Shown: one piece after another, positions 2,563-10,513 of the stretch
How the letters are laid out: each line of letters opens with the position of its first letter
Position numbering within the stretch: the first letter of the stretch is position 1
Assembly: GCF_030013205.1 (NCBI RefSeq)
Contig: NZ_CP122648.1
From: Escherichia coli
GTDB taxonomy: Bacteria; Pseudomonadota; Gammaproteobacteria; Enterobacterales; Enterobacteriaceae
Reading direction: 5' to 3' (one strand)
Length of the DNA: 64,000 nt
Made by a program: the position numbers and the translations under genes
The notes under the pieces: generated by a model
What the model was told of the DNA's origin: nothing
Databases searched by the model: none
Seen by the model: only the letters and a program-made list of their open reading frames with translations

Positions 2563-3546
2563 TTATTTCACCGTACCTAAAATTTCGATTTTCGCTGCTC
2601 TGGCTTTGACTTTACGTGACCAGATAGAGGTAAGAATTGGCACCAGAATCGAAGTCACAATGACCGCCGTCGCGACCAGCGAAGTTGCTGCCGGAGCCAT
2701 CGGTTTAAACGCAGGCACCATTTCTGCAATCAGCACAGGTGTCGCTACCGCGGCCCCTGCGGAACTGGAAGCGGCAATTCCGGCAGTGCCATCGCCACCG
2801 CCAATCAATTTATCAGCGATAATCAACGGAATACCGGTCACGATAATTACTGCCACACCCAACAGGATCCCCAGCAAACCTGTCTGGGCAATTACCGTCA
2901 AATCAATGGTATTACCCAGTGCGAAGGCAAAGAATGGAATCAGCGTCTGCACCGCTTTGCTGAAAAATTCTCGTAATTCAGGGTCAAGGTTCCCAAGGGC
3001 AAAGCCCACCAGGAACGGTAATACTGCGCCGACGAAAACATGCGGTTCAAACGAGGCAATCCCGGCAGTGCCCAGAATAATCATCGTCATGAGCGGCCCG
3101 GACTCCAATGACATCAACACAAATGCCCCAGCTTCTTCTTTTGTGCCGTACTGCTGCATGATGGAAGCGTAAAGTCCGCCGTTGGTCATATCCATCGCCG
3201 CCACCAGCGCCAGCGTTGAAAGTCCGGCAAAGAATCCAACTTCAACACCATGTTCCGGAATAATGCGCGAGGCAATTGCCGCAACCACCCACGCGACGGC
3301 AATTTTTGTTACCACCAGCGTACCGGATTTACGCAATACCGTTCCCGTCGCGCTTAATTTTATTGACGCCCCCATGCAAAAAAACCACACCGCCAGAATG
3401 GGCACCGTACCGGTAATCATCCCGTTGGTGAATGATCCAAAATATTTCCCCGCCTCCGGCGAGAAGGTGTGGCACAGTGCGCCAAGGAATAACGGGACGA
3501 GCATCATCCCCCCCGGGATTTTCTCAATCGAGCGTTTTATCTGCAT
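2563..3546 (-). CDS. kdgT: 2-keto-3-deoxygluconate permease KdgT (327 aa)
   Basis: Polytopic membrane ORF beginning [25 protein letters not shown]; start chosen at the ATG giving the 327-aa length I recall for KdgT. Confidence 0.85.
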
Positions 3547-3726
3547 TTCCATCACCTGTCGGCATATTTTTAAGGGCTGATGCGTCATTCCTCAATGGAG
3601 CATCAGTGTTGATGGAAACGAAGATAGACATTCATTTAATCAATAAAAGTGATCAAAACCACATCAATTGAAACACTGTTTTATTTTTATCGGATCATTG
3701 TTTTTATTTTGAAATTGATCACAAAA

Positions 3727-3760
3727 AAACCACCGCCGTTGGCGATGGTTCATTTTTTAA
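3727..3760 (-). terminator. Rho-independent terminator downstream of sodA
   Basis: Hairpin accaccgcc-gtt-ggcgatggt flanked by an A-run and a T-run, just 3' of the sodA stop on the minus strand. Confidence 0.5.
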
Positions 3761-4710: not shown

Positions 4711-5745
4711 ATGAGTAACGCGATTACGATGGGGATATTTTGGCATTTGATCGGCGCGGCCAGTGCAGCCTGTTTTTACGCTCCGTTCAAAAAAGTAAAA
4801 AAATGGTCATGGGAAACCATGTGGTCAGTTGGTGGGATTGTTTCGTGGATTATTCTGCCGTGGGCCATCAGCGCCCTGTTACTACCGAATTTCTGGGCGT
4901 ATTACAGCTCGTTTAGTCTCTCTACGCTGCTGCCTGTTTTTCTGTTCGGCGCAATGTGGGGGATTGGTAATATCAACTACGGCCTGACCATGCGTTATCT
5001 CGGCATGTCGATGGGGATTGGTATCGCCATTGGTATCACGTTGATTGTTGGTACGCTGATGACGCCAATTATCAACGGCAATTTCGATGTGTTGATCAAT
5101 ACCGAAGGTGGACGCATGACATTGCTCGGCGTTCTGGTGGCGCTGATTGGTGTAGGGATTGTGACTCGCGCCGGGCAGTTGAAAGAGCGCAAGATGGGCA
5201 TTAAAGCCGAAGAGTTCAACCTGAAAAAAGGGCTGGTGCTGGCGGTGATGTGCGGCATTTTCTCTGCCGGAATGTCCTTTGCGATGAACGCCGCAAAACC
5301 GATGCATGAAGCCGCTGCCGCACTGGGCGTCGATCCACTGTATGTCGCTCTGCCAAGCTATGTTGTCATCATGGGCGGCGGCGCGATCATTAACCTCGGT
5401 TTCTGCTTCATTCGTCTGGCAAAAGTGAAGGATTTGTCGCTAAAAGCCGACTTCTCGCTGGCAAAACCGCTGATCATTCACAATGTGTTACTCTCAGCAC
5501 TGGGCGGGTTGATGTGGTATCTGCAATTCTTTTTCTATGCCTGGGGCCACGCGCGTATTCCGGCGCAGTATGACTACATCAGCTGGATGCTGCATATGAG
5601 CTTCTATGTATTGTGCGGCGGTATCGTCGGGCTGGTGCTGAAAGAGTGGAACAATGCAGGTCGCCGTCCGGTAACGGTGTTGAGCCTCGGTTGTGTGGTG
5701 ATTATTGTTGCCGCCAACATCGTCGGCATGGGCATGGCGAATTAA
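4711..5745 (+). CDS. rhaT: L-rhamnose:H+ symporter RhaT (344 aa)
   Basis: 344-aa polytopic membrane ORF; position convergent with rhaR and divergent from sodA as expected for this locus. Confidence 0.9.
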
Positions 5746-6590
5746 TCTTTCTGCGAATTGAGATGACGCCACTGGCTGGGCGTCATCCCGGTTTCCCGGG
5801 TAAACACCACCGAAAAATAGTTACTATCTTCAAAGCCACATTCGGTTGAAATATCACTGATTAACAGGCGGCTATGCTGGAGAAGATATTGCGCATGACA
5901 CACTCTGACCTGCCGCAGATATTGATTGATGGTCATTCCAGTCTGCTGGCGAAATTGCTGACGCAAAACGCGCTCACTGCACGATGCCTCATCACAAAAT
6001 TTATCCAGCGCAAAGGGACTTTTCAGGCTGGTCGCCAGCCGGGTAATCAGCTTATCCAGCAACGTTTCGCTGGATGTTGGCGGCAACGAATCGCTGGTGT
6101 AACGATGGCGATTCAGCAACACCACCAACTGCCCGAACAGCAACTCTGCCATTTCGTTAGCAAACGGCACATGCTGACTACTTTCATGCTCAAGTTGACC
6201 GATAACCTGCCGCGCCTGCGCCATCCCCATGCTACCTAAGCGCCAGTGTGGTTGCCCTGCGCTGGCGCTAAATCCCGGAATCGCCCCCTGCCAGTCAAGA
6301 TTCAGCTTCAGCCGCTCCGGGCAATAAATAATATTCTGCAAAACCAGATCGTTAACGGAAGCGTAGGAGTGTTTATCGTCAGCATGAATGTAAAAGAGAT
6401 CGCCACGGGTAATGCGATAAGGGCGATCGTTGAGTACATGCAGACCATTACCGCGCCAGACAATTACCAGCTCACAAAAATCATGTGTATGTTCGGCAAA
6501 GACATCTTGCGGATAACGATCAGCCACAGCGACTGCCTGCTGGTCGCTGGCAAAAAAATCATCTTTGAGAAGTTTTAACTGATGCGCCAC
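5742..6590 (-). CDS. rhaR: AraC-family activator RhaR (282 aa, GTG start)
   Basis: C-terminal AraC HTH (..[21 protein letters not shown]..); the GTG at 6590 gives the 282-aa form beginning (M)[12 protein letters not shown]; the track ORF extends further 5'. Confidence 0.8.
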
Positions 6591-6663
6591 CGTGGCTACC
6601 TCGGCCAGAGAACGAAGTTGATTATTCGCAATATGGCGTACAAATACGTTGAGTAGATTCGCG

Positions 6664-7500
6664 TTATTGCAGAAAGCCATCCCGTCCCTGGCGAATATCA
6701 CGCGGTGACCAGTTAAACTCTCGGCGAAAAAGCGTCGAAAAGTGGTTACTGTCGCTGAATCCGCAGCGATAGGCGATGTCAGTAACGCTGGCCTCGCTGT
6801 GGCGTAGCAGATGTCGGGCTTTCATCAGTCGCAGGCGGTTCAGGTAACGCTGAGGCGTCAGTCCCGTTTTCTGCTTAAGCTGCCGATGTAGCGTACGCAG
6901 CGAAAGAGAAAATTGATCCGCCACGGCATCCCAATTCACCTCATCGGCAAAATGGTCCTCCAGCCAGGCCAGAAGCAAGTTGAGACGTGACGCGCTGTTT
7001 TCCAGGTTCTCCTGCAAACTGCTTTTACGCAGCAAGAGCAGTAATTGCATAAACAAGATCTCGCGACTGGCGGTCGAGGGTAAATCATTTTCCTCTTCCT
7101 GCTGTTCCATCTGTGCAACCAGCTGTCGCACCTGCTGCAACACGCTGTGGTTAACGCGCCAGTGAGACGGATACTGCCCATCCTGCTCTTGTGGCAGCAA
7201 CTGATTCAGCCCGGCGAGAAACTGAAATCGATCCGGCGAGCGATACAGCACATTGGTCAGACACAGATTATCGGTATGTTCATACAGATGCCGATCATGA
7301 TCGCGTACGAAACAGACCGTGCCACCGGTGATGGTATAGGGCTGCCCATTAAACACATGAATACCCGTGCCATGTTCGACAATCACAATTTCATGAAAAT
7401 CATGATGATGTTCAGGAAAATCCGCCTGCGGGAGCCGGGGTTCTATCGCCACGGACGCGTTACCAGACGGAAAAAAATCCACACTATGTAATACGGTCAT
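6664..7500 (-). CDS. rhaS: AraC-family activator RhaS (278 aa)
   Basis: 278-aa [44 protein letters not shown]... with a C-terminal AraC HTH; lies immediately upstream of rhaR. Confidence 0.9.

Positions 7501-7599: not shown

Positions 7600-10513
<2,914 letters not shown>

Follow-up and report, generated by a model that had tools for sequence, protein, structure and literature searches.

The last codons of rhaR, the gene that converges on rhaT, which encodes the L-rhamnose transporter, in Escherichia coli, appear to carry a second message: the pattern of synonymous changes among related species indicates that they hold a stem-loop which is selected as a structure and not for the protein, and this conserved hairpin of the rhaR tail probably stands in for the terminator that rhaT is missing. 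We think that the presence of such a conserved hairpin within a coding sequence, together with its turnover among genera, would be a modest new point. The overlap of the two genes adds little in itself: it is annotated in RefSeq, its class has been known since 2007, and a published list of overlapping transcription includes this pair. The rha junction may be seen as a small and clean example of how a 3'-end signal can be kept where two genes leave no room, and there is a practical side to it (anyone who recodes or truncates rhaR, or reuses rhaSR/rhaT parts in rhamnose-inducible systems, could unknowingly delete the signal). The DNA analysed here is a stretch of 64,000 nucleotides of an E. coli genome (RefSeq assembly GCF_030013205.1, contig NZ_CP122648.1), hereafter the window, and all positions are those of this window.

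The gene rhaT (4711-5745, plus strand) encodes the L-rhamnose/H+ symporter of 344 amino acids and ends with a TAA at 5743-5745, and rhaR (5742-6590, minus strand) encodes an activator of the AraC family, 282 amino acids long as annotated, with a stop TAA that is the reverse complement of 5742-5744 and is read as TTA on the plus strand. Delimited mechanically, the open reading frame of rhaR is longer on its upstream side and reaches a GTG at 6701. The identities of the two genes are secure. RhaT matches the NCBIfam equivalog NF010021 with 767 bits (cut-off 509) and RhaR matches NF010025 with 572 bits (cut-off 525, over residues 39-318 of the long frame); both appear in the ORF list and in the RefSeq annotation of a near-identical strain, so both genes are real, and they lie on opposite strands with their tails together. 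According to NCBIfam matches the pair is flanked by rhaS and sodA (Mn-superoxide dismutase); a further open reading frame of the list lies on the minus strand at 6664-7500 (NF010028, 548 bits, and annotated in RefSeq).

Both stops lie inside the tetramer TTAA at 5742-5745, which makes a convergent overlap of 4 nt (5740-5747 reads AATTAATC, and the context on the plus strand is ...GGC ATG GCG AAT TAA TCT TTC...). The original prediction, which had placed shared TTAA stops at these very positions, is borne out here by the sequence, by the ORF list and by the RefSeq annotation, where the identical 4-nt overlap is found in the near-identical strain K_EC180 and in one K-12-like strain (rhaT locus 1769-2803, rhaR 2800-3648). 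The arrangement is nearly universal in the species: a query of 600 nt, 100% identical to K_EC180, is covered to at least 80% in 5407 of 5426 complete E. coli genomes. For the 60 nt around the junction the same coverage is reached in 5413 of the 5426, and 5160 of 5414 genomes have these letters unchanged. Some 250 genomes depart from the window here, and the two variant genomes that were read both have a G-to-A change in the loop of the hairpin described below, with the stem intact. Within the first 50 kb of the window, as annotated in the near-identical strain, there are seven convergent pairs, and rhaT/rhaR is the only one to overlap, the other six having gaps of 40-181 nt.

[quoted passage not shown] With its TTAA, rhaT/rhaR is an ordinary and already annotated member of this class, from which it differs in nothing, and its orthologues additionally show all four tetramers. 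The logic of the tetramer is simple: the central TA is fixed because it is part of both stops, and the outer bases can vary, since either change leaves one gene with a stop and is synonymous in the partner, where its codon can be read; among species they do vary freely. In the window each outer base is the third base of the last sense codon of the partner, and its change is silent (AAT/AAC, Asn, for rhaT; GAT/GAC, Asp, for rhaR).

In order to see how old this geometry is, we can turn to the other Enterobacteriaceae, with one genome per GTDB species. The set comprises 80 of 354 rhaT loci, those among the matches listed, and a convergent rhaR lies downstream in 75 loci, namely 72 of these 80 plus three E. 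coli sequences including the window (the compared species are related, so that all such counts are of non-independent events). Among these listed loci, a distance of -4 from stop to stop is shared by Escherichia, Citrobacter, Salmonella, Atlantibacter, Trabulsiella and Intestinirhabdus, and TTAA, CTAA, TTAG and CTAG all occur at this distance (24 species-level loci in at least six genera). Enterobacter, Kosakonia, Lelliottia, Leclercia, Pseudocitrobacter and others have a distance of 0, most loci of Klebsiella, Raoultella and Kluyvera one of +4 to +10, and two loci one of -8. Spacers of 26-95 nt are found, again among the matches listed, in Mangrovibacter, Shimwellia, Tenebrionibacter and some Buttiauxella, and three of the 75 loci carry insertions of 1.1-2.1 kb between the two genes. 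Since close stop distances recur across genera, the tight end-to-end geometry should be considered old and conserved.

It had further been claimed that no terminator intervenes between the two genes. This stands in the narrow sense: there is no intergenic space, and a scan for consensus terminators at the junction found no hairpin followed by a U-tract. In the wider sense it does not stand, because a perfect and constrained 9-bp stem-loop begins 16 nt past the stop of rhaT, at 5762-5787. Its arms are GATGACGCC (5762-5770) and GGCGTCATC (5779-5787), separated by a loop of 8 nt (as found with a repeat finder and by folding). The whole hairpin lies inside the last 15 codons of rhaR, which read M-T-P/W-R-H at this place, 17 nt upstream of the rhaR stop at 5742-5744. 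It folds at -20 kcal/mol (z = -3.95, with none of 200 shuffles as stable); the stem, a perfect palindrome, can form by Watson-Crick pairing in the RNA of either strand (-16 and -18 kcal/mol, the fold on the minus strand being slightly more stable). The junction thus does have a terminator-like element, hidden within the coding sequence of rhaR.

What the hairpin shares with an intrinsic terminator is a GC-rich stem-loop soon after a stop codon; what it lacks is the U-rich tract 3' of the stem, of which there is none on either side (CCGGUUUCCCGGG follows the stem in the plus-strand RNA, UCAAUUCGCAGAAAG in the minus-strand RNA, and the sequence after the stem, CCGGUUUCCC, has no U-tract). True intrinsic terminators are present after rhaT in those orthologous loci that have a spacer (see below). 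The region has no match to an Rfam family at E <= 1, and the palindrome occurs only once in the window, so it is not a repeated element such as REP. It must be said that stable hairpins are no rarity in these GC-rich genes: typically 0-3 of 42 background intervals equal the energy of the junction hairpin.

The case for selection comes from elsewhere. The amino-acid motif encoded at the hairpin is conserved (in a RhaR C-terminal tail that is variable in sequence and length), and for this reason the conservation of the DNA alone is uninformative and it is the synonymous sites that carry the information. Among the matches listed, nearly every species whose gap is -4 or 0 has nine of nine stem pairs, and in the 43 such species the synonymous sites of the stem read GGG in 40 of 42, ACG in 43 of 43, CGT in 42 of 43 and CAT in 43 of 43. 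The proline of the loop uses all four of its codons in these same listed species, with a codon entropy of 1.48 bits. Elsewhere in rhaT and rhaR, CGT encodes only a minority of the Arg residues. The Gly and Arg sites of the hairpin are the least variable of the 48 Gly and 25 Arg conserved columns of the two genes; columns as invariant make up 7.8% of the 461 informative ones, and five of them fall in the interval over the hairpin, the highest number reached anywhere in rhaT or rhaR. When synonymous constraint is scanned with a sliding interval, the hairpin comes first of 205 intervals in rhaR and is lower than all 330 in rhaT, and this same scan detected no synonymous constraint at the 3' end of rhaT. 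Finally, the ten codons concerned were redrawn with the codon usage of each species: the synonymous recodings come to -8 +/- 3 kcal/mol and the native stem to -18 to -19, and, among the matches listed, 41 of the 51 loci whose gap is -4 or 0 have no more than 0.5% of recodings as stable as the native sequence.

The hairpin is not the same everywhere. Among the matches listed, the stem of the E. coli type is reduced to 5-6 pairs in Klebsiella, Raoultella and Kluyvera, where it is indistinguishable from recodings. These three genera have an alternative stem, GCGGCAACGC/GCGTTGCCGC, of 10-11 bp, formed by the codons for W-R-Q-R and R-V-A-A, which abuts the rhaR stop, lies 4-10 nt from the stop of rhaT and folds at -16 to -26 kcal/mol. 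The share of recodings as stable as this stem is at most 0.03 in 11 of the 12 loci among the matches listed, and 0.058 in the remaining one (L054). At one pair of this stem, three sequences have a compensatory change from AU to GC, and G.U wobbles occur as well; this covariation is weak and should be taken as supporting only (13 sequences, a single compensatory pair, and a score as high as the observed one in 10 of 500 shuffles). The wobbles of the Klebsiella clade are G.U in 8 cells on the plus strand versus 4 on the minus strand; for the hairpin of the E. coli type, the pairs that are wobbles on one strand only number 14 on the plus strand versus 18 on the minus strand. Atlantibacter, Buttiauxella and Mangrovibacter have yet another form, a hairpin shifted in register with a loop of 4 nt.

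The loci in which the two genes have moved apart are instructive in this respect. In Shimwellia (L064), Tenebrionibacter (L075), one Buttiauxella (L079) and K. spallanzanii (L026), which have a spacer or an insertion, a canonical hairpin followed by a T-run lies right after rhaT and is oriented with it (in Shimwellia this terminator is ACGCCCATGCCCCGCATGGGCGTTTTTT). K. spallanzanii has an insertion of 2.1 kb, rhaR is intact, and the hairpin of the rhaR tail is at -9.4 kcal/mol, no better than recodings; it thus appears to decay in this one genome of the Klebsiella type in which rhaT has moved away. The hairpin of Enterobacter quasihormaechei (L030), the one such case of the E. coli type, is intact despite an insertion of 1.1 kb between the genes.

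We propose the following model, which we hold, taken as a whole, to be somewhat on the probable side: the 3'-end signal of rhaT would be written into the tail of rhaR, and Rho would stop the rhaSR transcripts. As there is no intergenic DNA, the signal of rhaT would have to be placed in the last codons of rhaR. Transcripts of rhaT would run past their stop codon, transcribe the hairpin, and either end at its base or be trimmed to it, so that the hairpin most likely forms or protects the 3' end of the rhaT mRNA. It could act on the rhaT RNA as a weak or assisted terminator; alternatively, it could block 3' exonucleases after Rho has halted the untranslated RNA, antisense to rhaR, further on. The overlap, the hairpin and selection on it as a structure are shown by the comparison above; as to which strand the hairpin serves and how the ends are made, we infer both and favour rhaT, on these grounds: the hairpin is 3' of the rhaT stop yet 5' of the rhaR stop; the terminators of the species with spacers are oriented with rhaT and the hairpin of K. 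spallanzanii has decayed; wobbles possible on the plus strand only are in modest excess in the Klebsiella clade (the 8 versus 4 given above); and the rhaT side of the junction has neither a conserved hairpin nor synonymous constraint.

The same hairpin cannot terminate the rhaSR transcripts, because ribosomes translate through it. These transcripts would proceed into a C-rich untranslated RNA, antisense to the 3' end of rhaT, where Rho most likely stops them. On the minus strand, the 200 nt beyond the rhaR stop (5542-5741) have 69 C and 44 G by base counts, and the GC skew of the plus strand rises to +0.33 here; we consider 5542-5741 of the minus-strand RNA as a candidate loading region for Rho. 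No unusually stable or conserved hairpin was found on the minus strand downstream of the rhaR stop, the best ones matching the gene-wide background in most species. On the RNA of rhaT sense, the 50 nt that follow the hairpin (5788-5837, CCGGTTTCCCGGGTAAACACC..., plus strand) have 15 C and 8 G with at most three consecutive U, and the consensus scan found no terminator-like match in them; C and G are about even over 100-200 nt, and the strongest excess of C over G is at 6100-6350, about 300-600 nt past the hairpin. The 3' ends of the two mRNAs would then be complementary, on the rhaR side for some 45 nt or more.

Among known systems, the one that we infer by analogy to be the best fit for the rhaT hairpin is that of Dar & Sorek (PMC6061677), who described E. 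coli steady-state 3' ends that depend on Rho and lie right after stable stem-loops without a U-tract, where the stem shields the RNA from 3' exonucleases; such ends also occur inside downstream coding regions, and a bias of C over G follows them. The rha hairpin is likewise a stable stem-loop without a U-tract, with an energy like that of a terminator. A difference is that the downstream gene lies here on the opposite strand and overlaps. The supplements on 3' ends and transcription units of Adams (2021, eLife) and of Yan (2018, SMRT-Cappable-seq) contain no rhaT, rhaR or rhaS, probably as the rha operons are uninduced in standard media. A search of the literature for a rhaT terminator, an antisense RNA or Rho dependence returned nothing specific to the rhaT/rhaR junction and no mapped 3' end of rhaT or rhaSR.

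An alternative that we take seriously, while thinking it unlikely, is that the hairpin works as a bidirectional terminator of the collision type: it would pause the polymerases arriving from both genes until head-on and trailing collisions set them free, and the resulting 3' ends would be precise and would overlap, with neither Rho nor a U-tract needed. In Wang et al. (bioRxiv 10.1101/2022.10.23.513370), citing Ju et al. (2019), bidirectional terminators at convergent pairs are explained by such a model of RNA-polymerase collision. These elements share with the rha junction a convergent pair and a hairpin that forms from either direction, without the signature of an intrinsic terminator or of Rho, and the same source invokes E. 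coli bidirectional elements and the need for a hairpin that fixes the site of collision, which fits the rha case. The two rha genes are indeed convergent and co-induced by rhamnose, and the perfect palindrome, which has no features of an intrinsic terminator, folds in both RNAs by computation with the two energies reported above. The elements described there, however, sit between the boundaries of the genes, and the rha hairpin is found within rhaR, 5' of its stop, so that it offers a clean end-point for rhaT only. An rhaSR RNA released at the hairpin would be a non-stop mRNA, six codons short at its end and with no stop; moreover, translating ribosomes should melt the hairpin on the rhaSR strand.

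The original prediction had also argued that each mRNA must cover a part of the other gene, and this follows from the shared stops; overlapping transcription of rhaR and rhaT has in fact been published. ExcludonFinder (2025, PMC12288877) places rhaR-rhaT among 165 convergent excludons, whose RNA-seq coverage overlaps in 50% or more of the 58 MG1655 transcriptomes surveyed. One could then suppose that the overlap has been selected for mutual antisense, with interference, or cleavage of the duplex by RNase III, coupling the levels of the transporter and of the regulator. This listing speaks for it, as does the tight geometry kept across many genera, and yet we find it improbable. The listing is based on coverage thresholds and not on a measured regulatory effect, and the defining traits of the excludon concept are mutual exclusion and processing by RNase III, whereas rhamnose turns on rhaT and rhaSR together (RhaR activates rhaSR and RhaS activates rhaT; PMC9429829). 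Because rhamnose, acting by way of RhaR and RhaS, induces the two promoters alike, the classical logic of mutually exclusive expression is not obviously applicable. The genera in which 26-95 nt, or an insertion of 1-2 kb, separate the two genes and canonical terminators are present indicate that the overlap is dispensable, and a hairpin kept by selection just past rhaT should limit read-through rather than promote it. Antisense interference between rhaT and rhaR, which had been suggested on the basis of the overlap, may be possible in itself; no data on a regulatory effect were found in the literature searched.

We also considered that the overlap could be the product of neutral compaction, 4-nt convergent overlaps being common and arising readily by mutation of a stop codon (PMC2174442), with the hairpin serving rhaSR, either as a site of RNase processing or stability or by pausing ribosomes near the C-terminus of RhaR. 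The variability of the RhaR tail in sequence and length is compatible with this, and so are the slightly stabler fold of the E. coli-type stem on the minus strand and its wobbles, which favour neither strand. Three observations make this distinctly improbable in our opinion: trimming to a hairpin that is 5' of the stop would destroy the frame of rhaR, the hairpin has decayed in K. spallanzanii, where rhaT has moved off and rhaR is intact, and the terminators of the loci with spacers face rhaT.

A more ambitious reading, in which the conserved geometry of the two stops and the palindromic hairpin would jointly make up a programmed module of convergent transcription, strikes us as a long shot. 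Under induction by rhamnose, the polymerases from PrhaT and PrhaSR would meet at the hairpin, or the two 3' ends would pair, and rhaT transcription would thereby feed back on the completion or stability of the rhaSR mRNA, or the reverse. If true, this would add a feedback acting after initiation to the RhaR/RhaS cascade, one kept across the Enterobacteriaceae through the turnover of the hairpin.

The last reading, in which the inverted repeat would be bound as DNA by a dimeric protein (for instance a regulator or a roadblock) and would not be an RNA structure, has in its favour a perfect 9-bp repeat with a spacer of 8 bp, invariant in many genera, and we regard it as very improbable and have rejected it: the Klebsiella clade has an unrelated palindrome at this place, with a compensatory pair and G.U wobbles that are sensible only for RNA, Atlantibacter and Buttiauxella shift the register of the stem and the size of the loop, the site occurs once in the window, and two unrelated hairpin sequences at one and the same place argue that it is the structure which is selected and not a site for the binding of a protein.

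In the clade formed by Klebsiella, Raoultella and Kluyvera, the last codons of rhaR contain a distinct hairpin of 10-11 bp (GCGGCAACGC/GCGTTGCCGC) that replaces the E. coli-type stem. It is found at L050:4040-4075 in Raoultella ornithinolytica (L-numbers designate the compared rhaT-rhaR loci from other genomes), with equivalents in L016, L020, L043, L046, L052-L055, L058, L059 and L080. Several G.U wobbles occur in this hairpin, and at one of its pairs AU has been exchanged for GC by compensatory change.

In several genomes the two genes are no longer adjacent. In Klebsiella spallanzanii (L026:4036-6175), rhaT and rhaR are split by a 2.1-kb insertion; here a canonical hairpin followed by a T-run is present 3' of rhaT, and the hairpin of the rhaR tail has decayed (the tail reads R-I-I-A, and the folding energy is -9.4 kcal/mol). 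Insertions containing small ORFs also separate the two genes in Buttiauxella sp. A111 (1.6 kb, L079:3174-4820), where a canonical terminator follows rhaT, and in Enterobacter quasihormaechei (1.1 kb, L030:4036-5181), which has retained an intact 9-bp hairpin despite the insertion. Within the window, a strong canonical terminator (an 11-bp stem, then TTTTTTT) is located on the minus strand at 3727-3751, just 3' of sodA, which shows that nearby genes rely on ordinary intrinsic terminators where there is intergenic space.

E. coli G3/10 (L086:1511-1592, NZ_CP060075.1) is a natural rhaR deletion: RhaS and RhaT are present, RhaR is absent, and rhaS comes about 80 nt after rhaT. The match to the window breaks off within the 3' arm of the hairpin. 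The record of locus L068 (CACSKA010000012.1) is titled Chryseobacterium sp. 18061 but has an Enterobacter-like rhaT-rhaR arrangement with 88% RhaT identity; this assembly is probably mislabelled or contaminated.

At the other end of rhaR, the mechanically defined ORF (minus strand) extends 37 codons beyond the annotated ATG, up to a GTG at 6701 (window 6591-6701), and thereby overlaps the end of rhaS (6664). The shorter annotation of 282 aa is supported by the NCBIfam match to the long ORF, which begins at residue 39.

The strongest synonymous constraint in rhaT across 43 species falls on its first ~25 codons (window 4711-4790, plus strand), where the constraint windows lie at -0.4 to -0.55, as is usual close to the start of translation. 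As annotated in the near-identical strain, rhaB and rhaA point in the same direction and overlap by 4 nt, stop on start (window 9254-9257); among co-directional genes this common arrangement corresponds to the convergent overlap of rhaT and rhaR.

Finally, a position-by-position comparison of the window with K_EC180, an otherwise near-identical E. coli strain, is out of register before ~3450 and again at 25-27.5 kb. The kdgT ORF (2563-3588, minus strand) is intact in the window and is frameshifted according to the K_EC180 annotation; yiiE, within the 25-27.5 kb out-of-register stretch, is likewise marked as frameshifted.
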